Source: a virus (Duplodnaviria > Caudoviricetes). Taken from it: a DNA stretch of 64,000 bases. The notes under the pieces were generated by a model. It saw only the letters and a program-made list of their open reading frames with translations. It was not told the DNA's origin and did not search any database. The DNA is taken from positions 3,519-67,518 of IMG/VR virus record IMGVR_UViG_3300033067_001375. One strand, written 5' to 3'. Shown one piece after another: positions 5,197 through 25,700 of this stretch (position 1 is the first letter of the stretch; each line of letters begins with the position of its first letter). The position numbers and the translations under genes are program-made.

Positions 5197-5769
5197 ATGA
5201 CCAAACGTGCGGGCAAAGGCTCGAAGAATAAACGGCGGTTGGCGCATGCGGAAGCGTTGACGGCGGACAATCTGAGCCCTGAGGAATCACTTGCACTTGA
5301 GCTTGAGGCCTTGCGGTCGGGTTGGCTTAACGGCTCACCAACGTTTGCAAAAACGCGTGAGGCGTTGCTACTCAAAGCAGCTACCAAGGCCTTAAACGGC
5401 AAGTGTGACGATCAAACGTTTATAAAGCTCATGAGAGCCATTGCCCAAACAGAGCACAGAGAGATAGCCCTAAGGCTACAGGCGGCCTCAATTAGCCTTA
5501 GGGCTCAAGGGAAAGGTGGCGATGATTTGCCAGAGCAGCGCGGCTTGCCAGAGCAAAGGGGCGGCTCAACCGTTGTGATCAACAACAACGTGAGCGGACA
5601 AGATACGGCGCCGGCTCAGGTGCCAACGTTCGAAGTGATTCAACAGTTGATTGCCAAAAGAGAAATACGCGATGCCGCCGATAGACGCCCCCAACATATG
5701 CGAGCTCTTGACGCCGCTGGACCTAGCCCAACATTGCAACCCCAAATTCCTACGGCCCCCGCACTTTGA
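5197..5769 (+). CDS. Putative terminase small subunit
   Basis: Helical protein directly upstream of and overlapping TerL; assignment is positional only. Confidence 0.5.
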   Translation: MTKRAGKGSKNKRRLAHAEALTADNLSPEESLALELEALRSGWLNGSPTFAKTREALLLKAATKALNGKCDDQTFIKLMRAIAQTEHREIALRLQAASISLRAQGKGGDDLPEQRGLPEQRGGSTVVINNNVSGQDTAPAQVPTFEVIQQLIAKREIRDAADRRPQHMRALDAAGPSPTLQPQIPTAPAL

Positions 5770-7927
5770 ACTATTGCAACGTGAGTTTCTTGAGACGTTA
5801 CAGCCAGAAGGTTGGGACGTTCTAATAGCTCAGGCGCCGCCCCGTCACGGCAAGAGTGAGTTTTTGTCCCGGTGGGTACCGTCTTGGTTTCATCTGACCT
5901 ACCCAACTGAGCGGTCAATTCTGACCTCTTACGCGCTTGACCTTGCACGCGATCACTCACGCGAAGTGCGCGATAGGGTGCATGAGTACGCGCCGCTATT
6001 TGGTCACCGTGGCATTGACCGAAAGGTGAGCGGTAATGCTGACTGGAAAATTGCAGACTACGGCGGCGGCATGAAAGCGGCCGGGATCCGTGGGGCGATC
6101 ACTGGGCGTGGTGCAAATCTGTTTTTGATTGATGACTACTTTAAGAATGACGAGGAGGCAGTCAACCAAACTCTCAGGGATAAGCAATGGTCTTGGTTTC
6201 AGACGACGGCAACAACGCGATTCGAGCCCGGTTGTAAGTTGATCGTGTTGGCTTGCCTCGTTGGTGATACGCCCGTCGCTATGGCTGACGGCTCAAGCGT
6301 GCCTATTCGTGATGTGCGGCCGGGCGATAGAGTCAAGACGTTTGACGACGGCCGGTTGGCTACTTCTGTTATTCGTAATCATGCCTCAGTTGGGTACGAC
6401 GACGTGTTCCGTTTGACGTTGCAATCGGGTAAAACGGTGACAGCAAACGCGCGTCACCCGTTTTTAGTTGCACGCAATGGAGCTTTGAAGTGGATCAGGC
6501 TGAGAAACTTGACTACCGGGTTGAGAATCGTAACAACAAAGGCCAGTGGGGTAAGTGGAAAGGGAAAACTTGCCAATGGGAAGGTTGCGAACGGCCGGCA
6601 AAGTGCCGTGGATACTGCCATCACCACTACGCGAAGAAACGCACGCTTGACGGCTACCGTGCCCCCTCTCACAATCCGGAATCTCACCGAAAATCAAGGC
6701 TCAAATATCGCTACGGCATTACGGTTGATGACTACAACGCGTTACTCAAAAAACAACGTGGCGTTTGTGCCGTATGCCGTCAACCGCCAAGCGAGCATAA
6801 CACACGCAAACACCAAGGCGGACGATTGTGCGTTGATCACTGCCATGACACTGGAAAGGTGCGAGCCCTCTTGTGCAACGATTGCAACCTTGCCGCCGGA
6901 TACATTAAGACCAGCGCCGCCGCCGCTCAGTTGGCTCGATACCTCAGAGTTTTTGAGCGACTCAATAGTAGCGATTGAGTTCGCCGGCCGGGCCGAAGTG
7001 TTTGATATTGAGATTGAAGGGACGGGCAACTTCATTGCGGCAGGAATGGTAAGCCACAATACGCGCTGGCATGAGGACGACTTGATTGGCCGAATACTCA
7101 AATACGCCCTTGAAGATTCTGAGGCGCCAATGCGTGTGCGTGAGATACGCTTACCCGCGCTAGCTGAGCCAACCGATGAACAGCCCGACCCACTTGGCCG
7201 GAAAACCGATGAGGCTCTTTGGCCTGAGCGTTACAGCACGGCCGCGCTCAAGGCTAAGCGGTCACTCATGGACGGCTATTGGTTCAACGCGATGTTTCAA
7301 CAGCGGTTGACTTCGCACGGGTTCAACGAATGGCCAAGCGAATATTTCTACGGCGTGATGGCTCAGGATGATGAGTGGCCCGATAGGTTCACGATGAGCG
7401 CAACGGCCTTGGATCCAAGCAAAGGGCGCGATGCCAAGAAAGGTGACTTCTCAGGCATAGTCACGGCCGGTTATCACAAAGGCTACATTTGGCTTGACTG
7501 TGACCTTGAGCGGCGGCCGGTTCCAAAGATGATGCGCGACTTGGTTGACTGGAACAACCAGCGACGGCCAACAGTTACAGGCATTGAAGCGGTTGCATTC
7601 CAAGAGCTCTTGGGTACTGACTACGTTCAAGCTCAGATTGAGGCCGGCGGCTATCGTGATGAGCCTGAGCTTATATACAACAACGTGTCAAAGAATCTTC
7701 GCATTGGCAGGATAGGGACGTGGCTCAGGTTGCATATGCTCAAGATCCGCAACACGCCCGGCGGCAAGCTCTTGCTACAGCAACTTAAAGAGTTTCCCAA
7801 CGCGAAGTATGACGACGGCCCCGATGCCGCCGAGATGGCCATACGGCTCTTGCTAACGCTGAGCGAAGCGTTGGCCGAAATCTTCGTTCAGGCCTCACCG
7901 ATGTATACCGAAAGAATTATCACGTAG
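5651..7927 (+). CDS. terL: Terminase large subunit, intein-containing
   Basis: Walker A PPRHGKS, Walker B LFLIDD, coupling motif LA|TRWHEDDL split by the intein, nuclease acidic motifs ALDPS and YDDGPDA. Start may be ATG 5672. Confidence 0.95.
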   Translation: MPKEKYAMPPIDAPNICELLTPLDLAQHCNPKFLRPPHFELLQREFLETLQPEGWDVLIAQAPPRHGKSEFLSRWVPSWFHLTYPTERSILTSYALDLARDHSREVRDRVHEYAPLFGHRGIDRKVSGNADWKIADYGGGMKAAGIRGAITGRGANLFLIDDYFKNDEEAVNQTLRDKQWSWFQTTATTRFEPGCKLIVLACLVGDTPVAMADGSSVPIRDVRPGDRVKTFDDGRLATSVIRNHASVGYDDVFRLTLQSGKTVTANARHPFLVARNGALKWIRLRNLTTGLRIVTTKASGVSGKGKLANGKVANGRQSAVDTAITTTRRNARLTATVPPLTIRNLTENQGSNIATALRLMTTTRYSKNNVAFVPYAVNRQASITHANTKADDCALITAMTLERCEPSCATIATLPPDTLRPAPPPLSWLDTSEFLSDSIVAIEFAGRAEVFDIEIEGTGNFIAAGMVSHNTRWHEDDLIGRILKYALEDSEAPMRVREIRLPALAEPTDEQPDPLGRKTDEALWPERYSTAALKAKRSLMDGYWFNAMFQQRLTSHGFNEWPSEYFYGVMAQDDEWPDRFTMSATALDPSKGRDAKKGDFSGIVTAGYHKGYIWLDCDLERRPVPKMMRDLVDWNNQRRPTVTGIEAVAFQELLGTDYVQAQIEAGGYRDEPELIYNNVSKNLRIGRIGTWLRLHMLKIRNTPGGKLLLQQLKEFPNAKYDDGPDAAEMAIRLLLTLSEALAEIFVQASPMYTERIIT
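6254..7060 (+). mobile_element. Intein (269 aa) in TerL
   Basis: Block A CLVGDTPVAMADGS, block B-like ANARHPFLV, block F VFDIEIEGTGNF, block G VSHN followed by Thr+1. Removing it restores KLIVLA-TRWHEDDL. Confidence 0.95.
6490..6978 (+). CDS. Endonuclease VII-type (His-Me finger) nuclease nested in the -1 frame of the intein
   Basis: CAVC...LCVDHCHDTGKVRALLCNDCN motif; N-terminal CQWEGC...CRGYCHHHY Zn motif; GGAG 7 nt upstream of GTG 6490. Confidence 0.88.
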   Translation: MDQAEKLDYRVENRNNKGQWGKWKGKTCQWEGCERPAKCRGYCHHHYAKKRTLDGYRAPSHNPESHRKSRLKYRYGITVDDYNALLKKQRGVCAVCRQPPSEHNTRKHQGGRLCVDHCHDTGKVRALLCNDCNLAAGYIKTSAAAAQLARYLRVFERLNSSD

Positions 7928-14229: not shown

Positions 14230-14659
14230 TCACTTTGAATTCTGTAGCGATCAACAGAGCTCAGCCACTACGGCCGCCGCTGAGATACTTACAACGATGT
14301 TGGCCGGACAATTCGGCTCACTGAGCTCAAACACTGACGCGGGCCTTGAGCGGCTATCAGAGCGGCTTGGTTGTGATGCGAAGTTTGCCGCGTGCGTGGT
14401 TGCAGTTGATGAGCTCAAGGCTGAGAACGAACGGCAACGGCGAATGATCGGCAAGCTCAGGCAACGTGACGATTCGCAAAAGTACGTTGCCTTGCTAATT
14501 GATCAAAGAGTTTACGGCCCGTTCGGTTCGTGGGATGAGTCATACGAATACGGCCGAAAAATGCAAATGCCGTTTTCCGTCGAGGAGCTAAATAACGTGC
14601 ACCCCGACTTGGTCAAGGCAAGTGACGGCGATGCTGATCCGGTAAGCCGGAACGCGTAG
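14174..14659 (+). CDS. Hypothetical protein
   Basis: 161-aa ORF at the end of the operon. Confidence 0.65.
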   Translation: MNSEKLKAAQERIAAIIVDHFEFCSDQQSSATTAAAEILTTMLAGQFGSLSSNTDAGLERLSERLGCDAKFAACVVAVDELKAENERQRRMIGKLRQRDDSQKYVALLIDQRVYGPFGSWDESYEYGRKMQMPFSVEELNNVHPDLVKASDGDADPVSRNA

Positions 14660-15211
14660 GGGTATCTCAAGCAGTTCGCAAACCCGGTTGACGGCCGGCG
14701 CCGGGTAGTAGCTCACGCGTTTCAAGTTTGGCGTGAGTGGGCTTTGCACTCTCTTTGGTGCAAGCGTGGCTAAGAGTTTATCAACGTCTGAGCCGTGCGT
14801 TGCGTACAGTTGCAGACTATCGCGGCGGAAGTACAAGCCGGGTTTCGGTAGCATGGCAAGAGCGCACTTTCTAACCCACGGCATTCGCGTGAGCGTTCGT
14901 CCGTTTTCCTTCACTGTTTTGAGATAGCCGTTTTTGATGAGCCGCCAAAGTCTATCATGAGACGGCTGATCCGGTAGAATCAGAGCGGCCGCGTAAACCG
15001 TCAAGAGTTGCGGGTTGTCTATCTTGGGCTGAGCCGGCGCTTTGAGCCTGAGACGAAACACAAGCGCGGGTTTGTACGCCACGCGGCCGTTTAGGTGCAA
15101 GCTGACAGTGTTGCGATGCACGCCCAAGCGATTGGCGATCACGCGATTATCGACCCCGTTTTGAGCCCAATAGTGCAAGCGTTCAATGTCAGTCTCAGTT
15201 AGTTTTTGCAT
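14588..15211 (-). CDS. HTH DNA-binding protein, candidate late regulator
   Basis: N-terminal HTH VDNRVIANRLGVHRNTVSLHL; divergent from the portal gene. Confidence 0.7.
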   Translation of the reverse strand: MQKLTETDIERLHYWAQNGVDNRVIANRLGVHRNTVSLHLNGRVAYKPALVFRLRLKAPAQPKIDNPQLLTVYAAALILPDQPSHDRLWRLIKNGYLKTVKENGRTLTRMPWVRKCALAMLPKPGLYFRRDSLQLYATHGSDVDKLLATLAPKRVQSPLTPNLKRVSYYPAPAVNRVCELLEIPLRVPAYRISIAVTCLDQVGVHVI

Positions 15212-15233
15212 GTATGCACGCGGCGGTTAGAAT
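15205..15233 (+). promoter_or_regulatory. Class B (late-type) promoter-like motif
   Basis: TTTGCA-TGTATGCA...(17 nt)-TAGAAT upstream of the portal gene. Confidence 0.6.
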
Positions 15234-15257
15234 TGTTGCCGAAGGATAAACCACAAA

Positions 15258-18200
15258 ATGAGCGTTGAAATTCGATTGCGTGAGTTGTTCGGGGACGTCG
15301 TATCGCCTGATTATACATTTGACGGTACCGGCGTCAGTTGGGGTTGGGACCGCACTGGGCGCGGCGTGTATACCAAGCTCTATGATCGAGCCAACGGCCG
15401 CTATTTGCCAGTGTTCGAAAATGAGCTTGACCTACGCGCCCTCAGGCAATCGGCTTGGCTCATGGCTGAGCGTGTGCCGATGGCCAAGTCTATCATTCAC
15501 GGCTTACAAAACTACACGATTGCCAGCGGGTTTGATTACAAGATAACGCACAGCAATCCTACCGTTGCTCAGATTTGCACCAAAGTATTCAAAAACTGGG
15601 AATCGAATTCCAAGTGGACAAGTCACCAAGAGCGTGATAGTTTCGCGGCCGAAATCGTCGACGGTGAGTTCATTGCTGAGCTATGTTGTGACGGCCCCGA
15701 TGTTTGCCTTGAGCCGCTTGAGGGTGACAATCTCACTGAGCCGCTTAACACAAATGACCTTGATGACTACTTTGAAATCAACGGGCCAACTGATTGGACG
15801 TTTGGCGTTTGCACGCGTGAAAACAAGTTTCGGCCGTTGCGTTATCACGTTGTGCGCAATGACACGGCTACAGACTGGGACGCCCTCAAGCCTTGCGAAA
15901 TAGTTCACTGGACCCGCAACGTTCCGGTCAAGGCCAAGCGCGGGTTTGGTGACTTCTACATTTGTCACCGATACTTGGGTCACGCTGACAAGCTTGCGAT
16001 CAATACGGCGATTGGTACGCAAACGCAAGCGGCCATTGCCTACATAGTTGAGCACGCGGAAGGCGCCCGAAAAGATTCGGTTATGAACATGCTAAACGGG
16101 CTCAGAAACGTTGTGCCCAACGCCTATGATCCGGTCACGGGCGACCCCAACATTCGCACAAAAAAGATTGTGCCCGGCCAGCGAATCGACATACCCTTCG
16201 GTGCCAAGTATCACGCCGGTTTGTTGGGCTCAAACGCAAGCAACATTTACATTGAAGTGATGGAGGCAATGTTGCGCATGGTTGGCACTGTGCGTCATTT
16301 CCCTGAGCACATGCTGACCGGATACGCGGGCAACAACAACATGGCTAGCAGCTTGGTTGCTGAGAGCCCGTTTGTTCAAGGTCGTGTTGCAGAGCAAGCG
16401 GTACGGTCATCACGGCTCAAAGAGCTCATCGTCAAGGTTCTGAAAAAGTTTTTCAATTCACCGTGGGCCAAGCAGCGCGGCTATTGTTGGGACGATGTTG
16501 AGGCCGGTCTTGAGATTACCATTAGCGCGCCTGAAATTGTGAGCCGCGACATTGGTGCGCTTACACTTGCACTCAAGAGCCAAATGGAATTGGGCCTATT
16601 GAGCAAGCGCACGGCCTCACAAAAGTTGTCTCTTGAGTTTGACGCTGAGCAAGCCAACATTAAGAGCGAATCGGCTGAGAGCGGCGGCGGTGAAGTTGGC
16701 GCCGATGGTCAACCGGTGGCGCCTGCCGGATCCGGTGTGTTGGCAAATAGCAACCGGGTACAGTTCAAGCGTGCACGCAAGAACGTTGCCGAAATCGTCA
16801 ATGACTTCACCAGCGGCGCGACGACACGCGTGCAAGCCGAAGTGCTCTTGAGCGCTCAAGGTTTCGGCCCGGCAGAAGTTGAAAAGCTACTCAATGAGCA
16901 AACGCCAAACGTGCAAGAAAGTCTTGTAAACCGATTGACAAAGCGGTTGATCCTCAAGCGTTCCAAGTCACTGCGCGAATCGGTACCGCGTAAACGTTTC
17001 AATGTTGCCCGGCTCTTTGAGTGGGATGAGTACGATCATCCGCGCGGCAGCGATGGTAAGTTTATAGGCAAGATGAGCGGTGTTGATTTGAGCGGTTGGA
17101 ATCCCAAACACGCGACGGCCAAGTGGGCGATCAACAAGATCGGAAAGCTTGAGCAGTTCGCTAAGGCTGGCCAATGGGATATGTTCGAAAGTGCACTGAG
17201 CAAGCCCGGCGGATCAACGCTCAACACGTATCAAAAAACTGTTCTCAAAGCACAAGCCAACTTGGCCAAGCTCAAGGTTGACACGGTGAGCGCGCCGCCT
17301 GAGGGTACAACGCCCAAGCTTGAGGCGCCTGAGCTCATCGACGGTAGCGGCTGGAAAAAGGTAGGCTCACAACTTGGCTCAGTTCAAGGCGGCACATACG
17401 TTGCGCCTGACGGTACAAAATACTACGTCAAGCACGGAGATGATCCGTTGCAAGCACGCAACGAAGTATTGGCCTCGAAGTTGTACCAAGCGTGCGGCGG
17501 TAACGCGTTGGATGTTGACTTGGTTGAAATCAACGGCAAGGTGGGCGTGTGTTCGAAGTGGGACGATTCGGCACAAGTGATTGATTGGGCAAGCTCACCT
17601 GACCTCAAGATTGAAGCGGCCAAAGATTATGCCTTGCACGCGTGGCTAAACAACTGGGATTGCGTTGGCCATATCAGCGATCAGACCAACATTAAAGCGA
17701 TCAACGGTAAGCCGGTGTTGATGGATGCCGGCGGTAGCCTCGAATCAAAAGCCACGGGCGGTATCAAACCGTTTGGTACGGTGCCTAGCACTTACAACGA
17801 TTTGCTCAAGCCCGGTATCAATCAGTCGACGGCTAGTGTGTTCGGCGGAATGACGCCGGCACAACACGTTGAAGCGATAAGCAAGCTTGAGAATATCAGC
17901 GATCAAGACATTGCCGACATGGTTACCAAGTTCGGCAACAAGGATACAGCAACCGCGACGATCAAGACGTTGATTGCACGGCGTGACGCTATCCTCGGCA
18001 TGAAAGAAAGCTTGCAAGCGGCCGCCGCAATGTCAACTGACGCCGTGCCAGCGGCTAACACGCCTGAGGCAAAAGTCAGAGGGCCAGCCGATGGCCAATT
18101 GCACAAAATGTTCGGCCTCACGCCGGCACACTATGACAGCGAGCTTGAGACGTTCACGCCTGACGGTTGGGGCATTATAGCCAAGGCCAAGGGATATAAA

Positions 18201-20027
18201 GACTTCGCCGCGATGGTTGGTGCTCACATGGGCGCGGTCACGAAAGTTGGGTTGGCTAAGAGCAAGTTTGACAAGCTCGAAGCATTATCACAGATACCCA
18301 AAGCGCCAGTTGTAGAGCAACAAGCGGCTAAACCTGATCCGGTAGCGGCGGCCGTTGAGGCTGGTGACAGCAACGCGGCTATCAACGCAATCGTCAAGTC
18401 AAAGCTTGCTGGTCAATACGGCTTAGATGCCGATTATGAATTGAAAGATTCGCCTAAATATGCGCCTTATGCGTTGTCGCCTATTGCACAGAAGAAAGGT
18501 TACAAGGGGTTGCTTGACCTCAAGTATCACTTGCCCGATGCTGTTAGCGCATGGGCGGCGGCTAGTGACTTCACTCAGCAAGCCAAGATTCTTGACGCGT
18601 TGCCAAGTAAGGATAATTTCGATTTGGTTATGGCAACCGGCGGTAGCCCAAGTGAAACGTTTAACAAAAAGCTCGACGATATTTTCAGTGGTGGTTTCAA
18701 AGCGCAACCGGCTAGCGCGCCAGTTGCGCCAGTCACGCCACTACATGAGCCATTGGTTGAGCCTGATCACTGGCAAACCAAGCCTGAGGCGATGGCGGCA
18801 AACGTCACGATGGCAGTACCGCCGCCTCCGATCATCACAAGCCCGGCCAACCAGGACAAAGCCAAGCTCTTGGCTAAGTTGCATGAAGCGGCCAAGACTG
18901 GTGATATAGCAGCGGTGCACGCGATACCGGTCAACATGGATGCCAAAAATACTTATGCCAAAAAGGTAACGGCTTACAAGCTTGCAGTGTTGGCGGCGCT
19001 ATCGTCCGGTGGCGTTGTGGATCCGGCACACGTTACGCCTCCGTCAACGGCTCCGGTTGAAACTGCGCCTGAGGTACCCGGAACAAAGGCGGGGGCACTG
19101 CCTACGCTCACCAGCAAGGTAATCAAGGGCGTTATCAAGCCTGAGCTATTCCCGGCCGCCCCTGAGTTCGTGAGCTCCAACGCGGCCAACGTAGAGGCCA
19201 ACAACGCGATTGTGACCAAGGCACTCTCACTTGCGGCCGCCGGTGACATTGAGGGGCTTGACGCTCAGAGCGCAACGTTGCCACCAAGCAACAAGCTCAA
19301 GACGTGGCACGCGTCACTATTGAGCACGGTGAAAGATCAAACTCAACCGCAAGTGCAACTAGACGGCTCTTATGCTGACTTCACCAAGGCGATTGGCGCG
19401 CTACCGGCCAAGGGTGCTAAGAAGGTTGGCTACTGGGCGGTTGTTAAAGATTTGGGCGGCGTACCGGCCGGGCTTCCAACTGGTGAATACAAGAGCGCAG
19501 AGTATTCCTATCTGCAAGATCACAACCCGGTTTTGAACAAGGGTTTTGAAAACTACGGAAAGAAACTGGACGGCAATGAAGGGCAAGCGATTGTTTCCTA
19601 CACCAACGGATCCTATGACGGGATAAATTCGTGGTTGCGTCACGGTAAAGGTGATTCGAAGTACAAGGAAAAAGCCAAGCAAGCGGCGGCCGCGATGGCC
19701 AAGGCTTCGCATGAGTTGCCAGTTGGTCTAAAACTCAGCCGCAAACACGACGGAGATATGAGCTCACTCAAGGTTGGTGAGGTTGTTGCTGAGGGTGGTA
19801 TACTATCAACTTCTACGGATCCATCGACGTGGAGCGGTTCGAATCATTGGCATATCACGATTGGCCCCGGCTGCAAAGGTTTGTCAACTCACAAGTTTTC
19901 AAGCCACAAAACAGAGGATGAGATTTTACTACCGCCCAACACGCGTTTGCTCATCACTCATATTGCGCCAGGTGACTACGGAAGCGGCCGAAAGATTCAA
20001 GCGGTTATGTTGCCAACGGTCGACTAA
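15258..20027 (+). CDS. Lambda-type portal protein fused to kinase-like and ADP-ribosyltransferase domains
   Basis: Portal at about aa 1-500; HPRGSDGKF motif at about aa 594; kinase-like domain (YYVK, EVLA.KLY, WLNNWD, D.GGSL) at about aa 699-915; ART with R (LSRK), STS and EDE motifs at the C-terminus. Confidence 0.88.
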   Translation: MSVEIRLRELFGDVVSPDYTFDGTGVSWGWDRTGRGVYTKLYDRANGRYLPVFENELDLRALRQSAWLMAERVPMAKSIIHGLQNYTIASGFDYKITHSNPTVAQICTKVFKNWESNSKWTSHQERDSFAAEIVDGEFIAELCCDGPDVCLEPLEGDNLTEPLNTNDLDDYFEINGPTDWTFGVCTRENKFRPLRYHVVRNDTATDWDALKPCEIVHWTRNVPVKAKRGFGDFYICHRYLGHADKLAINTAIGTQTQAAIAYIVEHAEGARKDSVMNMLNGLRNVVPNAYDPVTGDPNIRTKKIVPGQRIDIPFGAKYHAGLLGSNASNIYIEVMEAMLRMVGTVRHFPEHMLTGYAGNNNMASSLVAESPFVQGRVAEQAVRSSRLKELIVKVLKKFFNSPWAKQRGYCWDDVEAGLEITISAPEIVSRDIGALTLALKSQMELGLLSKRTASQKLSLEFDAEQANIKSESAESGGGEVGADGQPVAPAGSGVLANSNRVQFKRARKNVAEIVNDFTSGATTRVQAEVLLSAQGFGPAEVEKLLNEQTPNVQESLVNRLTKRLILKRSKSLRESVPRKRFNVARLFEWDEYDHPRGSDGKFIGKMSGVDLSGWNPKHATAKWAINKIGKLEQFAKAGQWDMFESALSKPGGSTLNTYQKTVLKAQANLAKLKVDTVSAPPEGTTPKLEAPELIDGSGWKKVGSQLGSVQGGTYVAPDGTKYYVKHGDDPLQARNEVLASKLYQACGGNALDVDLVEINGKVGVCSKWDDSAQVIDWASSPDLKIEAAKDYALHAWLNNWDCVGHISDQTNIKAINGKPVLMDAGGSLESKATGGIKPFGTVPSTYNDLLKPGINQSTASVFGGMTPAQHVEAISKLENISDQDIADMVTKFGNKDTATATIKTLIARRDAILGMKESLQAAAAMSTDAVPAANTPEAKVRGPADGQLHKMFGLTPAHYDSELETFTPDGWGIIAKAKGYKDFAAMVGAHMGAVTKVGLAKSKFDKLEALSQIPKAPVVEQQAAKPDPVAAAVEAGDSNAAINAIVKSKLAGQYGLDADYELKDSPKYAPYALSPIAQKKGYKGLLDLKYHLPDAVSAWAAASDFTQQAKILDALPSKDNFDLVMATGGSPSETFNKKLDDIFSGGFKAQPASAPVAPVTPLHEPLVEPDHWQTKPEAMAANVTMAVPPPPIITSPANQDKAKLLAKLHEAAKTGDIAAVHAIPVNMDAKNTYAKKVTAYKLAVLAALSSGGVVDPAHVTPPSTAPVETAPEVPGTKAGALPTLTSKVIKGVIKPELFPAAPEFVSSNAANVEANNAIVTKALSLAAAGDIEGLDAQSATLPPSNKLKTWHASLLSTVKDQTQPQVQLDGSYADFTKAIGALPAKGAKKVGYWAVVKDLGGVPAGLPTGEYKSAEYSYLQDHNPVLNKGFENYGKKLDGNEGQAIVSYTNGSYDGINSWLRHGKGDSKYKEKAKQAAAAMAKASHELPVGLKLSRKHDGDMSSLKVGEVVAEGGILSTSTDPSTWSGSNHWHITIGPGCKGLSTHKFSSHKTEDEILLPPNTRLLITHIAPGDYGSGRKIQAVMLPTVD

Positions 20028-20055
20028 ACCGGTGCCAGTTGCGGCCTTGTTACCC
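20020..20055 (+). promoter_or_regulatory. Class A promoter-like motif
   Basis: TCGACTA-N17-GCCTTGTTACCC; followed by AGAAAGTG as at 7964. Confidence 0.55.
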
Positions 20056-20061
20056 TAGAAA

Positions 20062-20700
20062 GTGAAACCAAAAATGACTGAGATTGTTGATCGAACAGAT
20101 GGCACCAACGCTTCAAAGGGCCGCGATGAGGACGTGTTTTCGGTAGCCAAGAGCCGTGCGGTGACTGAGAGTTATCTTGGCAACGTTGCGGTTGTTCAAG
20201 CTCTATTGAGGGCAGAGATAGCCGATTTCATGCAAACGGCTGACAACCAGAATGCCAACGCGACGGCCGTCAAAGGCCGTGAGATAGCGTTACAGTTGAC
20301 TAAGATTTTTCTTGGCCAAGACGAAACGTTTGCAGGTGTTCCCGGCTGGAATGATCCCGGCCGAATTGACCGATACTTAGCCCCAAAGATCGGTTCAACT
20401 GAGTCTGACGCGGCGCGTGTGATCGAACAATGGGCCGTCCGGTTGCTGACTCAAGTTGTTCAGGTTGCCAACTTCGCGGCTCAAGAGGGCGTGCTTGATG
20501 AGCAATGGACCGGTGAGCTCGAATCAATCGTTGACGAAAATTGTCACCTGATCATGGGCATAGATTCAAGCTATGACGAAATGGTTGATGGTGACATTGA
20601 AATTGAGACGGCGCCGGCGATCAGCCAGCCAACGCCCGAATCAGTGAAAGCTCAGCGGCTTTACGATAGCCTGAAATCCTCTTGGAAAGATTACCCGTAA
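20062..20700 (+). CDS. Hypothetical protein in the head gene cluster
   Basis: 212-aa ORF between portal and MuF. Confidence 0.7.
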   Translation: MKPKMTEIVDRTDGTNASKGRDEDVFSVAKSRAVTESYLGNVAVVQALLRAEIADFMQTADNQNANATAVKGREIALQLTKIFLGQDETFAGVPGWNDPGRIDRYLAPKIGSTESDAARVIEQWAVRLLTQVVQVANFAAQEGVLDEQWTGELESIVDENCHLIMGIDSSYDEMVDGDIEIETAPAISQPTPESVKAQRLYDSLKSSWKDYP

Positions 20701-21350
20701 TGCCGGACGTCATTAAGCGGGCTCAAAAAGAAAAGCGGTTCGCGCGGGATATGGTTTCTGCGTGGACCGTTTTTGCTGCGCCAGCGCTTAAAGGCAAAGA
20801 GCCTGATTGGGACAAATTCGCGTCGGTAAGTGAGAAAGCGGCGCGTGAGCATATTGAAGCGCAGCGGCGGTTGGCAATCGTGTTGCTCTTTCTCATGTTT
20901 GCCGATGATATTAAGAGCGGTAAGCTGAGCGAAGATCCGGAGGAGTACGCCCGCCGGCTGGCCGAATATGAGGCCAACAGTAAGCGCCCCACGAAGTTGG
21001 GCCAACTCTTGGCCAAGACTTCACGCAACCGTTGGCGTGAGCTCAGAGAGCAACCTACACGTCAAGAGCTTGAGCAATGGGTTGAGGACAATCTATCGCT
21101 TGAGCGTGCGCTGGCCGTGAGCGCTACTGAGATAACTATGGCCAACACAAACGGCGAATTCAGGGCGCGTGACATACTGCGCAACCTGGGCGTGAGGCTT
21201 CGCGGTATCTGGCGTGCTGAGCCCGGCGCGTGTGAAGTGTGCGGAGATTTGAACGGCTCACCTGAGGTTATTTGGATCAGATACTTTCCTGGTGGGCCGC
21301 CGGATCCGCACACGTCTTGCCGGTGCCATATCGATTGGGTCAACGCCTAA
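20700..21350 (+). CDS. MuF / SPP1 gp7-like head morphogenesis protein (short form, no toxin extension)
   Basis: TE...A...W....ACEVCGDLNG...PPDPHTSCRC; TAATG coupling. Confidence 0.85.
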   Translation: MPDVIKRAQKEKRFARDMVSAWTVFAAPALKGKEPDWDKFASVSEKAAREHIEAQRRLAIVLLFLMFADDIKSGKLSEDPEEYARRLAEYEANSKRPTKLGQLLAKTSRNRWRELREQPTRQELEQWVEDNLSLERALAVSATEITMANTNGEFRARDILRNLGVRLRGIWRAEPGACEVCGDLNGSPEVIWIRYFPGGPPDPHTSCRCHIDWVNA

Positions 21351-22382: not shown

Positions 22383-22464
22383 CGCTTCCCCAGGAATATG
22401 GTGAAAACTCTATAACACTTTAAGGGGCCTCCAAACGTTCTATTGGATTGGTTTGTATTTGACT

Positions 22465-22500
22465 ACAGAGCAAGGCCGAAATTCCAAAAAAGTTTGTCGG
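22465..22500 (-). promoter_or_regulatory. Class A promoter-like motif
   Basis: CCGACAA-N17-GCCTTGCTCTGT on the minus strand, pointing at the 3-gene minus cassette. Confidence 0.65.
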
Positions 22501-22505
22501 TGCGG

Positions 22506-22534
22506 TTTGCAAGTATGCAAACGCCAGAAAGAAT
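22506..22534 (+). promoter_or_regulatory. Class B (late-type) promoter-like motif
   Basis: TTTGCA-AGTATGCA...(17 nt)-AAGAAT; ATG 22542 lies near the expected +1. Confidence 0.55.
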
Positions 22535-22541
22535 GAGCAAC

Positions 22542-23675
22542 ATGAAAACCAAAGCACGCACTCACAACCAACGTTTGAGCGAATCGGTAACGCAAACCGG
22601 CAACTTCTCAGTTGACCGCGAGGCCGGTGTAATTCGTGGCGTTCGTGTGCTTGGCCTCAAGTCAAAGAACGGTCGGCGCTATCTCAAAGAAGCGGTAGCC
22701 GATGCCATACCGATGTATGAAGGCTCGAAGATTTTCATTGATCACACGTTGGTTGAGGGCGACCGGCCCGTGCGTGATCGGTGGGCTCAGCTTAAAAACG
22801 TTTCTCAGGATGAGGACGGCGGTTTGAGTGGTGACATTCACTTTCTCAAGAGCCATGCGCTAACGCCCGTGATCCTTGAGGCGATTGAGCGTTTTAGTGA
22901 CTTCGGGCTATCACACGATGCCAACGGCGAAGTGCGTAGCGAAAACGGTGTAGCCGTTGTGCACAAGATCAACCGCGTGCATAGCGTTGACTTGGTTAGC
23001 AACCCGGCGACAAACAAAAATTTACACGAAAGCGAAACCATGAAACGCAAGATCATCGAAGTGCTACGCGAAAACGCAAAGGTTTCCATTGCCGGCTATC
23101 TTGCTCAACGTTTGCAAGAAATGGATGGCATGGGCGATATGTCAATGGACATGCCTACTGAGGCCGCGAGCCCCGAAGATCAAGCAGATGCCGCTTTCAA
23201 GGCAATCGTGTTAGCAATTCTTGACGGCGAAGGCGATGCCAACGCGATGGTCGAGAAGATTCGCAAATTATTGGAAGTCAAATCCGAAATTTCGGGGGGT
23301 GGTGGTATGCCTAAAAAAGATAGCGGTGAGGCGATGGGCGCCGCCGCACAAGAGTCAATTGACAGGCTCAAGACTGAGCTTGACAAGTCAAATCAGACTA
23401 TCAATGAGCTCAAGGAATCATTGCAACGCAAAGATGACCGGGCGGCCGCAATCAAGCTGCTTGAATCGTCTGAGCGTGAAGTAACCGAATCGCGTATTGC
23501 GATCATCATGCGATTGCCTGAGGCTGACCGCAAAGGCTATGTGACCGACCTGCCAGTTGTTCGCAAGCGCCCCGAATCCAGCCCAAGCCGTATTGCAGAG
23601 TCAACCAAGGCCGATGAGGAAATCAAGGTTGAGACTCACGATTCGCTCAAAAAGTTGCTAGGCGTGGGCCGCTAG
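22542..23675 (+). CDS. Prohead protease-scaffold fusion
   Basis: SKNGRRY, IFIDH, GLSHDA and SVDLVSNPAT protease motifs, then an acidic coiled-coil scaffold; immediately upstream of the capsid genes. Confidence 0.88.
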   Translation: MKTKARTHNQRLSESVTQTGNFSVDREAGVIRGVRVLGLKSKNGRRYLKEAVADAIPMYEGSKIFIDHTLVEGDRPVRDRWAQLKNVSQDEDGGLSGDIHFLKSHALTPVILEAIERFSDFGLSHDANGEVRSENGVAVVHKINRVHSVDLVSNPATNKNLHESETMKRKIIEVLRENAKVSIAGYLAQRLQEMDGMGDMSMDMPTEAASPEDQADAAFKAIVLAILDGEGDANAMVEKIRKLLEVKSEISGGGGMPKKDSGEAMGAAAQESIDRLKTELDKSNQTINELKESLQRKDDRAAAIKLLESSEREVTESRIAIIMRLPEADRKGYVTDLPVVRKRPESSPSRIAESTKADEEIKVETHDSLKKLLGVGR

Positions 23676-23753: not shown

Positions 23754-24470
23754 ATGCCTAAAGCACTGAATTTGCCAGAAGCGTACTACTACGCTGATCG
23801 GCAAGTGTGCGTTGTTGAGGATTTCGTTAGCGGCGTGCCTGCTACATGGACGGGCGTTGGAACGAGCGCAACGGCGGCCAGCGCTACGGATAAGGGCGGC
23901 GCGGTTTCGATTGTGACAACCACAACCGATAACAACGTTTCGAGCTTGATCCTAACTGCCAAGCCCATCATACCAGCGGTTGACGAGCCAATTCACTTTG
24001 CGGCCCGCATTCGGTTTGCTGAGGCAGCCACCAATCAAGCCAACTTGTACGTTGGTCTTAGCTCCAACGCGCCAGCAACGCAAATGCAAGCCAACGGCGC
24101 AGGCCCGGCGGCAAGCTATACCGGTTTCGGTTTCTTCAAGGTCGACGGTAATGTCAACTGGAAAGTGGAAGTCAGCAACGCGGCCGTCAAGTCAACGCAA
24201 GAGCTCAACGGGCAAGCCGTTGCATCGCTCACCCGTGCGGCCAAGGTTGCGGGCTCAGCCTCTTACCAGTTGCTTGAGATTGAGATTATTGCCAAGACTG
24301 CAACCAAGATGGATGTGAGTTTCAAGATCGACGGCGTGTGTGTGTTCAAGGTCACCGATTTTGTGTTCACTTCGATGGTTGCGGTTGGCCCGGTGTTTGT
24401 TTGTATGACCGGATCCACAACGGCCGAAACGCTGATTGTTGACTTGGCCAAATGGGCTCACGTTCGATAG
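23754..24470 (+). CDS. Putative head decoration / minor capsid protein (beta-rich)
   Basis: Lies between scaffold and MCP; predominantly beta-strand-like sequence. Confidence 0.55.
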   Translation: MPKALNLPEAYYYADRQVCVVEDFVSGVPATWTGVGTSATAASATDKGGAVSIVTTTTDNNVSSLILTAKPIIPAVDEPIHFAARIRFAEAATNQANLYVGLSSNAPATQMQANGAGPAASYTGFGFFKVDGNVNWKVEVSNAAVKSTQELNGQAVASLTRAAKVAGSASYQLLEIEIIAKTATKMDVSFKIDGVCVFKVTDFVFTSMVAVGPVFVCMTGSTTAETLIVDLAKWAHVR

Positions 24471-24545: not shown

Positions 24546-25700
24546 ATGTCCAATGCAATTCAACGGCGTCATAACGACTTGCGTCGGTTGCGTGAGTGCC
24601 GTCTGAGGGAAGGGCGGCGCGATTTGTTTGAGCGCGAAATGGCGGATTTATTCGCTGACCGCTCAGTAAGCTTGAGTGATTTTCACGTTCGCCCGATGTT
24701 CGAGGCTATGGTTGACGACGGCCATGAGCTAGTGAGCAATCACTACGCGCCGAATATGTCCGGCGGCTACCAAGTGCAAGAAGCAAGCGATGCCGTTTCA
24801 ACAAGTATGTTCCCCAATATTATGGGGCAGTATTTGTTCAACGCAATTTTGCGTGCCTATGAAGCGCCTGAGTTCATCGGTGATTCGCTGGTTAGCAAGA
24901 TGGGCACGATGTTGAGCGGGGAGAAGATCCCCGGCATTTCGCCGATCGGTGACCAAGTTGAAGTTGTCAACGAAGGTCAGCCATACCCCAACGCGGTGTT
25001 TGGTGAAAACTGGATTGAAACGCCTGAGACGATCAAACGCGGTTTGATTGTTGACGTGACCAAAGAGGCCGTGTTCTTTGATAAGACTGGCTTAGTGCTC
25101 AAGCGTGCTGGTGAAGTTGGTCAAGCCATCGGCCTAAACCGTGAAAAGCGAATCCTTGACGTTGTGCTTGGTTTGGTGTCAACCTACAAACGCAACGGCG
25201 GCGCAGTTGAAGCAACGTATCAGTCAGATAACACGGTAACCACAACGCCGCTGACCGATTACACAAGCCTTGACGCGGCCGATACCAAGTTTTCCGCGAT
25301 GCTTGATCCGGATACCGGCGAGCCAATCGTGCTGACGCCAAAGGTCTTGATCGTGCCACCAGCGCTACGCAATACGGCCAACCGTATCAAATCGGCGTTC
25401 ATGACGAATATAACCAACTCATCGCGTGAAACGCGTGTTGGTTCCAATTCGCTCAACTACGATTGGAAGATCATAACAAGCCCGTATGTCAAGCAGCGTA
25501 CAAGCTCAGATACGACTTGGTTCTACGGTGACTTTGACGGCGCGTTTGTGTATTCGGAAAATTGGCCAATGCGTGTTGAGCAAGAAAACGCTTCGAGCGC
25601 TCAAGCGTTTGATCGTGACATTGTGCAGCGTTACAAGGCCTCCGAACGTGGCGCCGCCGGCGTGTTTGAGCGCCGCAAGGTTCTCAAGGGCACTGCCTAA
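24546..25700 (+). CDS. Major capsid protein (HK97 fold, Mu gpT-like)
   Basis: QEA...STSMFP, KRG.I..VT.EA.F.D, PKVLIVPPAL and WFYGD motifs; size and position fit. Confidence 0.9.
   Translation: MSNAIQRRHNDLRRLRECRLREGRRDLFEREMADLFADRSVSLSDFHVRPMFEAMVDDGHELVSNHYAPNMSGGYQVQEASDAVSTSMFPNIMGQYLFNAILRAYEAPEFIGDSLVSKMGTMLSGEKIPGISPIGDQVEVVNEGQPYPNAVFGENWIETPETIKRGLIVDVTKEAVFFDKTGLVLKRAGEVGQAIGLNREKRILDVVLGLVSTYKRNGGAVEATYQSDNTVTTTPLTDYTSLDAADTKFSAMLDPDTGEPIVLTPKVLIVPPALRNTANRIKSAFMTNITNSSRETRVGSNSLNYDWKIITSPYVKQRTSSDTTWFYGDFDGAFVYSENWPMRVEQENASSAQAFDRDIVQRYKASERGAAGVFERRKVLKGTA

Follow-up and report, generated by a model that had tools for sequence, protein, structure and literature searches.

P0001, a protein of 1589 residues, is probably the portal of its phage with a head-packaged two-enzyme effector carried on its C-terminus. 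Folds and profiles place along the polypeptide a lambda-type portal (aa 1 to ~575), a kinase resembling HipA, CtkA and PI4KII (~685-925) and an ADP-ribosyltransferase (ART) of the R-S-ExE type (~1390-1589), in that order. The window, the 64,000-nucleotide stretch of DNA analysed, holds the gene as one open frame on the plus strand, as a sequence-only reading had claimed, and every motif quoted there was found where it had been placed.

15258..20027, + strand: portal-cargo gene P0001, a single ORF from ATG 15258 to TAA 20027, 1589 aa, no internal stop
aa 594-602 (nt 17037), + strand: P0001 motif HPRGSDGKF
aa 703-712, + strand: P0001 motif GSQLGSVQGG
aa 722-725, + strand: P0001 motif YYVK
aa 736-743, + strand: P0001 motif EVLASKLY
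aa 796-801, + strand: P0001 motif WLNNWD
aa 822-828, + strand: P0001 motif MDAGGSL
aa 1493-1496, + strand: P0001 motif LSRK
aa 1516-1520, + strand: P0001 motif LSTST
aa 1553-1559, + strand: P0001 motif EDEILLP

The fusion is conserved across related phages. Twelve proteins among the retrieved relatives share the portal-kinase-ART architecture at 35-74% identity, and in P0002, P0005, P0006, P0007 and P0036, which come from separate samples and databases and span the same range of identity, it is as uninterrupted as in P0001. The full-length relative P0002 (~70-74% identical) was found in two samples with identical synteny, and the synteny of the fused locus is repeated in independent JGI, ENA and Logan samples. 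A mis-assembly had been named as one danger to the reading, and neither a stop nor a frameshift was found between portal and cargo. A 52.8-kb contig from run X1, which may be the source sample, spans the whole portal-cargo stretch with 0 differences; a 2061-base contig from a second sample, X2 (16131-18191), crosses the junction gap-free, differing by six substitutions; and four runs showed neither indels nor joints. That portal and effector genes were merged through a missed stop or frameshift is vanishingly improbable: we found nothing in its favour, metagenomic though the contig is, and against it stand the independent contigs that cross the junction without gaps, the five relatives with unbroken architecture and the sequence conservation that extends through the linker.

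Beyond these relatives, a megablast search of 50,697 phage records returned 0 matches. A tblastn search of phages gave no portal match at E<=1e-5 and matched the cargo part alone, in giant proteins of ~90-kb phages and in Gordonia phages. The portal had no relative in a scan of 185,579 species-representative genomes, hence no host was assigned. The stretch was present in none of the RNA runs, a result with no bearing on expression. The source is an uncultured river phage.

The portal gene sits in a packaging and head module, together with the large terminase gene (TerL) and the capsid gene (24546-25700).

15258..16982 (aa 1-575), + strand: portal domain (Pfam, PHROG, AF2 and Foldseek)
5651..7927, + strand: large terminase with intein (PHROG_38, E 1.5e-79 in two stretches), the packaging partner upstream of the portal

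The portal domain comprises a core (~aa 50-470), a disordered Gly/Pro/Ala-rich segment (~476-492) and four C-terminal helices (500-573). The lambda-type portal proposed from the sequence was recovered at the level of fold: an AF2 model (m8c2fbfa730c8; pLDDT 71 overall, >90 in the core) was searched with Foldseek and its best matches are all portals, lambda gpB first (8k38, E 4e-12, TM 0.55 on the target), with Chi, R4C, T4 gp20 and HK97 also among them. The fold search was required, as a PDB sequence-profile search reached no portal. PHROG_21 (‘portal’) matches P0001 at E 2.8e-10, and Phage_portal_2 (PF05136) aligns to aa 58-355 over profile positions 22-329 of 354 at E 2e-6, with 27.7 bits, under the cut-off of 32.9; the relative P0036 scores over it, with 46.7 bits. 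Unfused relatives of 564-578 aa, which occur with identical gene order, terminate where P0001 ~aa 577 aligns. TerL in the relatives is either 464-477 aa long or carries an Intein_splicing match. No second portal was found among the ORFs scanned by family profiles, on a contig that may miss part of the genome; the PF05136 profile search of the phage’s own record is too insensitive here, giving no match even for the known portal.

Downstream of the portal domain, the remainder of the protein divides as follows.

17037..17309, + strand: HPRGSDGKF motif (aa 594-602) and helical module (aa ~607-684) ahead of the kinase (conservation, model, local HMM)
17310..18032, + strand: protein-kinase-like domain, HipA/CtkA/PI4KII-like (aa 685-925; AF2 pLDDT 91.7, fold alignment)
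18033..19424, + strand: spacer rich in Ala and Pro, containing helical modules (aa 926-1389; no domain recognised)
19425..20027, + strand: ART domain of R-S-ExE type (aa 1390-1589) and stop codon (Pfam ADPrib_exo_Tox, PDB profile matches)

Within the HPRGSDGKF motif, P595 and G600 are invariant among the fused relatives. The module that follows is helical in a model of high pLDDT; by a local HMM, most cassette proteins have it ahead of their kinase, and some have a second copy before the ART. The kinase-like domain recognised by the sequence-only reading is predicted to adopt a bilobal kinase fold. VIA-align places the model closest to Helicobacter pylori CtkA (Z 17.2, rmsd 3.2 Å, 216 residues aligned), followed by PI4KIIalpha (Z 13.3), HipA (12.0), LepB-N (11.1) and the classical kinases (8-9). 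A Gly-rich loop, the ATP-binding Lys, the alphaC Glu, the catalytic Asp and Asn and the metal-binding Asp of a DxG motif are all present, and across 188 aligned domains K725 is retained in 182, E736 in 184, D801 in 180, N811 in 184 and D823 in 182, with N799 also within 180-188. In Pfam the region has no match at E<=1, whether to HipA_C, to PI3_PI4_kinase or to any other family, and ESM Atlas features offer leads alone, to PI3_PI4_kinase, HipA_2 and LepB_N at 0.91-0.92. By modelled fold and residues the predicted kinase is a member of the HipA/CtkA/PI4KII branch outside any named family. It shares the fold and the catalytic residue set of that branch but is just 12-16% identical to it, matches no Pfam kinase model, has an insert between the catalytic Asp801 and Asn811, and lies always within head cargo proteins, usually followed by an ART. 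HipA- and PI4K-like folds include lipid and small-molecule kinases too.

The spacer between the enzymes is the least conserved part of P0001, with 59% identity to P0002 and about half of it aligning to other relatives. It has no match in Pfam, PHROG or PDB profiles, and the internal repeats visible by eye gave nothing in a blastp self-comparison and are not significant in pairwise comparison (z 0.3-2.6).

The C-terminal domain had been read as a VIP2-like ART with the R-S-E signature, and this assignment holds, the domain falling in the VIP2/C3/Alt clade. ADPrib_exo_Tox (PF03496) matches aa 1428-1571 with 34.8 bits, over its cut-off of 23.4, and R1495, S1517-T-S and E1553-D-E1555 are present. 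Compared with solved structures, the family profile finds more than 40 ARTs, with Lmo0066 best (2.7e-18) and ExoT, Vis, Vip2, CdtA, SpvB, Tre1, iota and C3 among the others; our literature search found no functional study of Lmo0066. Over 135 domains R1495 is kept in 132, E1553 in 134 and E1555 in 134, and S1517-T1518-S1519 and the other catalytic positions are each present in at least 93%, save S1519 at 76%. Judged by their residues, both enzymes are catalytically complete.

If the cargo is to leave the head it must be cut from the portal, since the portal stays in the capsid and an uncut linker would hold the cargo there. Candidate sites for such a cut lie at the end of the portal domain, and a candidate protease gene precedes the capsid gene.

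16908..16982, + strand: linker in which two motifs, V-Q-E-S (aa 551-554) and L-R-E-S (aa 572-575), are candidate prohead-protease sites (motif enrichment)
22443..23675, + strand: candidate prohead protease-scaffold, 410 aa, likely start M31 (nt 22533) (conservation, motifs, weak profiles)
24546..25700, + strand: major capsid protein (Pfam Phage_capsid_4, E 4e-21, aa 81-381)

In 12 of 12 fused relatives the stretch from the portal core to the HPRG motif contains at least one hydrophobic-x-E-S/A motif; the total of 27 compares with 6.1 +/- 2.4 in shuffled sequences and a maximum of 18 in 2000 shuffles. From this enrichment we infer that the VQES and LRES motifs are protease cleavage sites, and they coincide with the natural end of the unfused portals. 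The capsid protein carries similar candidate maturation sites, M-F-E-A (aa 51, in 4/4 relatives) and V-Q-E-A (aa 77, in 3/4), both ahead of the capsid domain, which begins at aa 81. The ORF at 22443-23675 precedes the capsid gene in all relatives. Its N-terminal 170 aa contain invariant D-H, G-L-S-H-D and S-V-D motifs, its C-terminal half is helical and acidic, and it holds 8-9 hydrophobic-x-E-S/A motifs against ~1.7 expected. Language-model features (ESM Atlas) lead to Peptidase_S77 and Mu-like_Pro, and there are very weak profile matches to the scaffold 6b0x (E 0.034) and, in 2/5 members, to Phage_GPO (E 0.0095). It matched no Pfam protease family, and a tblastn search of phages found no match. 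Its identification as the prohead protease is a lead and falls short of proof.

Two genes follow the cassette before this region.

20062..20700, + strand: cassette-linked partner gene, 212 aa, GTG 20062 (ATG 20074 an alternative start) (linkage to the cassette)
20700..21350, + strand: MuF-like minor head protein, short, with a start codon (ATG 20700) that overlaps the TAA of the partner (TAATG) (motifs, weak Pfam)

Homologues of the partner lie directly 3' of a kinase-ART protein at all nine other loci checked (L003, L005, L008, L010, L011, L012, Dolphis gp118, ECML-606-1 gp46 and IMG/VR L030/L037/L042/L061) and are missing at the unfused-portal loci L007 and L009. The partner has no Pfam or PDB match and no recognisable immunity or hydrolase fold, and a complex prediction with the kinase and ART domains scored 0.00, which is no answer in either direction. 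The sequence-only reading had placed a short MuF gene next to the portal. A short gene without cargo that is weakly MuF-like by sequence does exist, but it is the second gene downstream, and the immediate neighbour, the partner, is not MuF. The MuF-like family keeps TE(I/V)T.A, CxxC and PPxPHxxCxC; Pfam Phage_Mu_F matched two of four members (best E 0.0037), and hhalign against a MuF-bearing protein aligned the R..IA.TE motif alone (E 0.14). P0001 itself has no MuF domain by Pfam or PHROG. In most relatives the MuF-like gene comes after the portal or an inserted cassette.

In this portal clade the cargo is followed by a conserved W-x-x-Y-P end, which adjoins the short MuF-like gene. We propose that the cassette occupies an insertion hotspot bounded by the portal core and by this end, whose translation is coupled to that of the MuF-like gene. 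In loci L023 and L027 the cargo lies between the core and the W..YP tail inside one ORF. The tail case is strong for L005/L011 compared with P0177, in which aa 1-~700 of P0005/6 are joined straight to the tail module that forms a separate ORF in L005/L011; from its sequence P0177 is a natural cargo-less derivative. The partner gene ends S-W-K-D-Y-P (20680-20697), and its tail matches the tail HMM over the last six residues alone (7.4 bits, E 0.7), so that at the P0001 locus the case for the slot is one of position and census. The W-K-D codons, rich in purines, also resemble a Shine-Dalgarno sequence ahead of the MuF-like ATG, and part of the W..YP conservation may therefore act at the RNA level.

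Portal homologues with variable C-terminal domains, which it had been suggested we seek, were found, and the cargo of the clade is highly polymorphic: in 69 complete relatives, what follows the portal core is between 8 and 1297 residues long. The kinase-ART cassette itself occurs fused to the portal, as standalone proteins (P0022, P0023) and fused to MuF (P0025, P0033). With its partner it is found also as its own gene right after the portal and at the end of giant proteins in ~90-kb phages. Its presence on MuF and as standalone proteins is as expected for packaged cargo. The kinase is followed by the ART in 134 of ~165 kinase-bearing proteins. At E<=1e-3 the kinase domain turns up in 3198 cluster representatives, without exception large multidomain proteins. 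PHROG 802 (‘Alt-like’) matches the Dolphis and ECML-606-1 homologues, and other long portal cargos (L029, L033, L069) gave no PDB sequence match. More tentatively, and with some doubt on our part, the W-x-x-Y-P slot might be a dedicated cargo slot in which unrelated cassettes, bracketed by prohead-protease sites, are swapped, making the portal a modular 12-copy delivery scaffold; the kinase-ART-partner triad might then be a widespread, unstudied three-part effector (thousands of protein clusters) whose enzymes act jointly on a host target and whose partner restrains them until ejection.

Most likely the portal would load the cargo in the procapsid, a prohead protease would free it and it would exit with the DNA. 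Portals are dodecamers, and with their C-termini facing the capsid interior, assembly would bring the ~110-kDa cargo into the procapsid in as many as 12 copies. The protease (candidate ORF 22443-23675) would then cut the hydrophobic-x-Glu|Ser/Ala linker sites VQES 551-554 and LRES 572-575. After exit with the DNA, phosphorylation and Arg-type ADP-ribosylation of host proteins at the onset of infection would serve takeover or counter-defence. The product of the translationally linked partner gene (20062-20700) would probably hold the enzymes in a harmless state in the producing cell, or else assist them there. Twelve 110-kDa cargos (~1.3 MDa) would plausibly fit beside ~68 kb of DNA, judging from the analogous cases of T4 internal proteins and N4 vRNAP. 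The cargo-adaptor interpretation of the sequence-only reading is supported in part: the portal, kinase and ART domains and the variable C-termini are borne out, while its functional steps (12 copies, release, injection, takeover or anti-defence) stay inference.

The same locus could be read otherwise. The kinase and ART, made late, might modify proteins of host or phage origin while assembly is under way, for instance to block late abortive infection, with the portal fusion a by-product of the cassette landing in the portal-MuF junction. The cargo region is a hotspot of many unrelated inserts, in frame or with their own stop, so the fusion may be neutral; the cassette is also a separate gene (P0022; L030, L037, L061), and the tight linkage of the partner suggests that activity in the producer matters. 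We nevertheless hold this to be unlikely, as the cassette is found repeatedly on two capsid-interior anchors, portal and MuF, and on no other recognisable anchor, the linker motifs common to scaffold and capsid proteins point to prohead processing, and the standalone copies remain in the head-gene block. Those linker motifs, lying exactly at the end of unfused portals, also speak against a cargo that stays bound to the portal in the capsid, whether with a structural or packaging role (filling, organising DNA, plugging the channel) or as a passenger with no role after ejection. The long Ala/Pro-rich spacers and helical modules could indeed be flexible tethers, L023 and L027 do carry their cargo between core and W..YP tail in one ORF, and no protease family is firmly identified. 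Yet the catalytic residues of both enzymes, which a filler does not need, are kept in ~96-100% of >130 homologues, and unfused relatives assemble without such a filler, making permanent tethering a distinctly poor prospect.

The domain swapping and the conserved downstream gene resemble polymorphic toxin loci, and P0001 with its partner could be a toxin-immunity pair of the MuF/Bxa type, serving competition between lysogens and non-lysogens or released on lysis, with the partner as immunity factor. There is precedent in the prophage MuF-ART Bxa, neutralised by downstream Bsi and BAH (PMC11699363), and in the link between temperate phages and MuF toxins (PMC5576092). Here we recognised no integrase or repressor in the ORFs scanned, a relative of the portal in 0 of 185,579 species-representative genomes argues against a common prophage, and the partner lacks a recognisable immunity or hydrolase fold; such a pair seems quite improbable to us. 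Delivery of a portal-borne effector from the head remains our preferred reading.

Proteins injected with the DNA act before phage gene expression, which makes them prime candidates for first-strike takeover or anti-defence; to our knowledge few have been studied, for example T4 Alt, internal proteins and N4 vRNAP. A portal fusion sets both copy number and location of its cargo, so that packaging, processing and ejection become directly testable, and we know of no portal fusion of this kind that has been tested experimentally. A HipA/CtkA-like kinase, an Arg-type ART and a partner recur in thousands of phage protein clusters for which we found no Pfam family and no published function, so that work on a single member would supply annotation for a great many proteins. 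The 3' end of the portal gene, with its natural insertion slot, may also be of use for bringing proteins into capsids.

Effectors on phage head proteins are already known; P0001 is a conserved example, with an unstudied kinase-ART pair, a partner gene of its own and likely release sites. Iyer et al. (2017, PMC5512222; 2022, PMC9503650) described PBECR, 2H, InPase and Nudix domains on portals and ARTs on head or portal proteins, and predicted portal- and MuF-fused effectors to be injected. P0001 has the architecture of their polyvalent effectors, at least two effector domains plus a virion anchor in one phage ORF of the head module, and shares with them several catalytic domains per head-locus polypeptide, a portal or MuF anchor and predicted delivery with DNA. 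Their kinase, in contrast, is a Ser/Thr/Tyr-type lacking the C-lobe, from (pro)phages of Verrucomicrobia and Bacteroidetes, whereas that of P0001 is HipA/CtkA/PI4KII-like. We found no mention in these two papers of a fixed kinase-ART-partner module, linker cleavage motifs or a W..YP insertion site, and our literature search returned nothing specific on a phage cassette that joins portal, kinase and ART, or a CtkA/HipA kinase and an ART.

MuF polymorphic toxins (Jamet et al. 2017, PMC5576092), whose ARTs include EFV and Bxa with its immunity Bsi and BAH (PMC11699363), likewise carry a variable C-terminal effector, often an ART, on a minor head protein beside the portal. A downstream gene neutralises Bxa, and the cassette type of P0001 occurs on MuF in P0025 and P0033. 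The carrier in P0001 is instead the portal, with 12 copies per virion expected compared with 1-2 reported for SPP1 gp7; the phage’s MuF-like protein (20700-21350) is short and without cargo, its partner (20062-20700) is unrelated by sequence to known immunity families, and signs of a temperate lifestyle are absent. T4 Alt is a packaged and injected ADP-ribosyltransferase, which gp21, the prohead protease of T4, processes at L/I-x-E sites. Alt and, in the reading preferred here, P0001 are encoded for head packaging, and both belong to the R-S-E ART clade, the cassette ART profile matching Alt at Y-x-G-x-Y..IN..L and E-x-E-V-I-L-P (15.4 bits in a one-sequence search), and the release proposed here at x-E sites would parallel gp21 processing. 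Alt, however, is a free 682-aa protein that is self-targeted to the head and has no kinase (kinase HMM -0.3 bits), whereas the ART of P0001 belongs to the same polypeptide as the portal and has a kinase as its companion.

The portal, kinase and ADP-ribosyltransferase (ART) regions of the portal-cargo protein, P0001, are encoded by one uninterrupted reading frame of 1589 codons, 15258–20027 (+), as the sequence-only reading had proposed, and every motif which that reading quoted lies in P0001 where it had placed it, by residue and by nucleotide. Mis-assembly, which it had named as a refuting condition, was checked directly, and the contigs of four runs showed neither indels nor joints nor loose ends. 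A 52.8-kb contig from run X1, which may be the source sample, spans 15000–20300 without a difference. A 2061-base contig of a second sample aligns without a gap to 16131–18191, reaching from residue ~292 in the portal to residue ~978 in the cargo, and carries six substitutions. Another study supplied pieces, from two riverine metagenomes, that match at 99% or more. A stronger argument than the bridging contigs is that the same unbroken architecture recurs in 35–74%-identical proteins from unrelated samples (P0002–P0007, P0024, P0028, P0036, P0082 and P0084). An assembly artefact is excluded by the gap-free contigs together with these relatives. The gene order around the fused relatives was that of the window wherever the context could be read.

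The window covers bases 3519–67518 of a 67.5-kb IMG/VR virus record (G000). Although CheckV puts its completeness at 68%, the genome may be nearly whole, since three related phage contigs end at 67–68.5 kb. Near-identical pieces of G000 are present in riverine metagenomes, and a scan of 185,579 species-representative genomes, bacterial and archaeal, gave no relative of the portal. The order of the head module is as follows.

Gene order of the head module in the window.
DNA methyltransferase gene, first listed gene of the module
5651–7927 (+), large terminase (TerL), 758 aa, with an intein; PHROG_38 matched in two separated stretches
Run of small genes, between the large terminase and the HTH gene
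14588–15211 (-), HTH gene, ~200 aa; N-terminal HTH with weak HTH_30, HTH_38 and GerE matches
15258–20027 (+), portal-cargo gene
20062–20700 (+) and 20700–21350 (+), two small genes (partner gene, MuF-like gene)
22443–23675 (+), 410-aa gene, then 23754–24470, 238-aa gene
24546–25700 (+), capsid gene, Phage_capsid_4

The TerL of the phage that encodes P0002 matches Intein_splicing, and the large terminase of the window is itself an intein-bearing TerL. It is 758 aa long, compared with 464–477 aa in relatives; at locus L007 the TerL position is held by an 820-aa gene with a LAGLIDADG match. The unfused portal P0008 (954 aa, 55% identical to the portal of the window) has an insert of ~400 aa after ...GYAGNNNLA which, by eye only, is intein-like with a homing endonuclease (CHDD...; ...SGNSALVAESPF). 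It looks as if both TerL and portal carry inteins in this phage group, the portal insert being judged by eye. The HTH gene lies directly upstream of the portal and keeps this position in all relatives, with or without cargo (L003, L005, L007, L009, L011, L012); it is a candidate late-gene regulator and, being present in relatives of both kinds, is not cargo-specific. The strand-rich 238-aa protein, whose gene follows that of the protease-scaffold candidate and precedes the capsid gene, has 237–238 aa in all relatives and no family match; judged from its position, it may serve as a decoration or auxiliary head protein.

Profile matches and modelling both identify residues 1 to ~575 of P0001 as a portal. 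Phage_portal_2 aligns over almost its entire model, at 27.7 bits against a cut-off of 32.9, which a relative exceeds (46.7 bits), and the PHROG_21 'portal' profile matches P0001 with an E value of 2.8e-10. The AF2 model, based on 31 relatives, has a pLDDT of 71, with a core above 90 and low values for the N-terminus and the clip and tunnel loops, as expected when a portal is modelled as a monomer. Foldseek returned solely portal chains as top matches, lambda gpB being the best (E 4e-12), followed by Chi, R4C, T4 gp20, HTV1 and HK97. Unfused relatives (564–578 aa, 39–53% identical, with identical gene order) end where they align to residue ~577 of P0001.

Beyond this point a basic linker leads to the invariant HPRG motif (H-P-R-G-x-D-G-K-F), which together with a helical module is confidently modelled over residues 594–684; some relatives have a second copy of the module ahead of the ART. 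The kinase region itself (residues ~685–925) has no Pfam, PHROG or PDB sequence match. The AF2 model of residues 585–931 reached a pLDDT of 91.7, and its Foldseek matches were kinases only. In VIA-align the best match was Helicobacter pylori CtkA (Z 17.2, rmsd 3.2 Å over 216 residues), ahead of PI4KIIalpha (13.3), HipA (12.0), LepB-N (11.1), actin-fragmin kinase (9.7) and the classical protein kinases (8–9). The glycine-rich loop, Lys725, Glu736, Asn799, Asp801, Asn811 and Asp823-x-Gly are each conserved in 180–188 of 188 aligned domains. This fold ranking and these residues place the domain as an intact-looking member of the HipA/CtkA/PI3-4K branch of the kinase-like fold, and the lack of any sequence-profile match places it outside every named sequence family. 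Among 1.84 billion cluster representatives, HMMER picked out 3198 clusters with this domain at E≤1e-3 and 1936 at E≤1e-10, practically all of the matching representatives being large multidomain proteins. Some proteins, such as P0057 (3416 aa), carry the kinase two to five times in tandem or have ART domains flanking it on both sides, and the module appears to undergo duplication and shuffling. In P0006, by eye only, residues ~600–810 between portal and kinase look like an inserted HD phosphohydrolase (…HDIGK…).

The Ala/Pro-rich spacer that follows (residues 926–1389) is poorly conserved, and no domain was recognised in it with Pfam or PDB profiles. The C-terminal ART (residues ~1390–1589) is matched by Pfam ADPrib_exo_Tox above cut-off, and a profile of the fused family matches more than 40 solved ARTs, including Lmo0066 (2.7e-18), ExoT, Vis, Vip2, CdtA, SpvB, Tre1, iota and C3. 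Arg1495, Ser1517-Thr-Ser and Glu1553-x-Glu1555 are present in P0001 and nearly invariant. In P0004, a second ART-like module (YRALG...SSWT...EFLLP) was seen by eye between portal and kinase, at residues ~700–900; the local ART HMM did not detect it.

Kinase followed by ART is the arrangement in 134 of about 165 kinase-bearing proteins compared, and 12 of the 134 have the portal clade of the window at their N-terminus. The cassette also occurs on MuF proteins (P0025, P0033), as a standalone protein of ~800–880 aa (P0022, P0023) and as the C-terminus of 1222–2253-aa proteins in cultured ~90-kb phages (Dolphis gp117, ECML-606-1 gp47). On the contig of P0022, the upstream ORF is a portal end with a different, topoisomerase-IB-like extension. 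These sequence comparisons show a cassette that moves from one head anchor to another. It does not travel alone: the partner gene (20062–20700) directly follows the portal-cargo ORF, and each cassette locus examined has a homologue as the very next gene after the kinase-ART protein, its start often overlapping the stop of the latter (L003, L005, L008, L010, L011, L012, Dolphis gp118, ECML gp46 and, from IMG/VR, L030, L037, L042 and L061). The gene is absent at the unfused-portal loci L007 and L009, and its product matched no Pfam family and, by sequence, no solved structure. In Dolphis and ECML-606-1 a further gene of ~285 aa follows the partner (gp119 and gp45, 45% identical to each other, annotated 'nucleotide phosphatase'); the window lacks it, and in the ~90-kb phages it may be another cassette accessory.

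The MuF-like gene begins at ATG 20700, overlapping the partner TAA (TAATG). It is kept at fused and unfused loci with the pattern TE(I/V)T.A, CxxC and PPxPHxxCxC, and Phage_Mu_F weakly matches two of four family members. This is probably the short MuF gene that had been described as adjacent to the portal, although it comes second after the portal-cargo gene, behind the partner. The variable C-terminal parts anticipated among portal homologues were found: across the 69 IMG/VR loci whose portal ORF is complete, 8–1297 residues lie past the portal core, with a median of 255 (more than 500 in 20 loci and more than 800 in eight; ~100 for an unfused portal). Cargos include an ART only (L016, L023, L027), a eukaryotic-type, TopoIB-like topoisomerase I (P0191, PF01028) and an unrelated ~650-aa cargo (P0009); the 1000–1300-aa extensions of L029, L033 and L069 had no PDB sequence match. 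Many portals of the closer subclade terminate in ...W-x-x-Y-P, with exactly one such ORF at each such locus. This ending is on the portal itself in 25 loci, some with internal cargo, and on a separate ORF in 10, among them L030 and L061, where, as in the window and L003, it belongs to the partner protein; in 31 of 33 cases the MuF-like gene comes straight after the ORF that bears it. A natural control is provided by P0177, in which residues 1–~700 of P0005/P0006 (76–78% identity) run straight on into the tail module (84% identity) that forms a separate ORF behind the cargo in L005 and L011. From the census and this control we infer that the portal gains cargo cassettes, and at times loses them again, upstream of its last codons, leaving the portal-MuF junction intact. 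In the window the tail similarity is limited to the terminal SWKDYP of the partner protein, whose codons also form a purine-rich stretch ahead of the MuF-like ATG, so part of the constraint may reflect translational coupling rather than protein function.

In each of the 12 fused proteins, the stretch from the portal core to the HPRG motif holds at least one hydrophobic-x-E-S/A motif; in P0001 these are VQES (551–554) and LRES (572–575), exactly at the end of unfused portals. The linkers hold 27 in total, against 6.1 ± 2.4 in shuffles (maximum 18 in 2000). Eight or nine, against about 1.7 expected, occur in the conserved 380–410-aa protein encoded ahead of the capsid gene, in five of five relatives. 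Conserved sites are also present in the capsid protein, at residues 51 and 77, just before its Pfam domain. T4 gp21 cleaves after Glu in L/I-x-E, and by analogy the motifs fit this rule as putative cleavage sites. The 410-aa protein has two parts, an N-terminal domain of ~170 aa in which D-H, G-L-S-H-D and S-V-D do not vary, and a C-terminal half that is acidic and helical; His71 and Ser127 are among its invariant residues. Its ESM Atlas features suggest T4-gp21-type (S77) or Mu-type prohead proteases, and it weakly matches P2 gpO and scaffold proteins. It is our lead for the prohead protease.

The domain identities, intact active sites, conserved fusion, mobility between portal, MuF and free forms, linked partner gene and motif enrichment are established here, and the mechanism proposed on top of them is as follows. 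With its C-termini turned towards the inside of the capsid, a portal dodecamer would bring up to 12 cargos into the procapsid, where a prohead protease would release them. They would then leave with the DNA to modify host targets at time zero; in the producing cell, the partner would restrain or assist the cargo, on the model of Bsi and Bxa (PMC11699363). Taken as a whole, we consider this sequence of packaging, release and ejection under partner control rather probable. The same enzymes might instead be active only in the producer cell, which seems unlikely, or the cargo might stay tethered to the portal in a structural role, which we regard as quite improbable; a Bxa-like competition toxin appears equally improbable.

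Effectors fused to portals are of a kind already described: PBECR, 2H and InPase domains have been reported on portals, with injection predicted (Iyer et al. 2017, PMC5512222), and toxins on MuF proteins are likewise documented (Jamet et al. 2017, PMC5576092). Between them, the 2017 paper and Iyer et al. 2022 (PMC9503650) also list ARTs joined to head or portal proteins. T4 Alt weakly shares the flanking ART motifs with the cassette (15.4 bits) but, unlike it, has no kinase domain. Neither the combination of a HipA/CtkA-like kinase, an R-S-ExE ART and an obligatory partner, nor the shared cleavage-type motifs, nor a defined insertion slot before the W..YP end of the portal was found in PMC5512222, PMC9503650, PMC5576092 or literature searches. 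Set beside these systems, the kinase-ART-partner module is unsurprising in principle, yet very abundant, unstudied and unusually easy to test.
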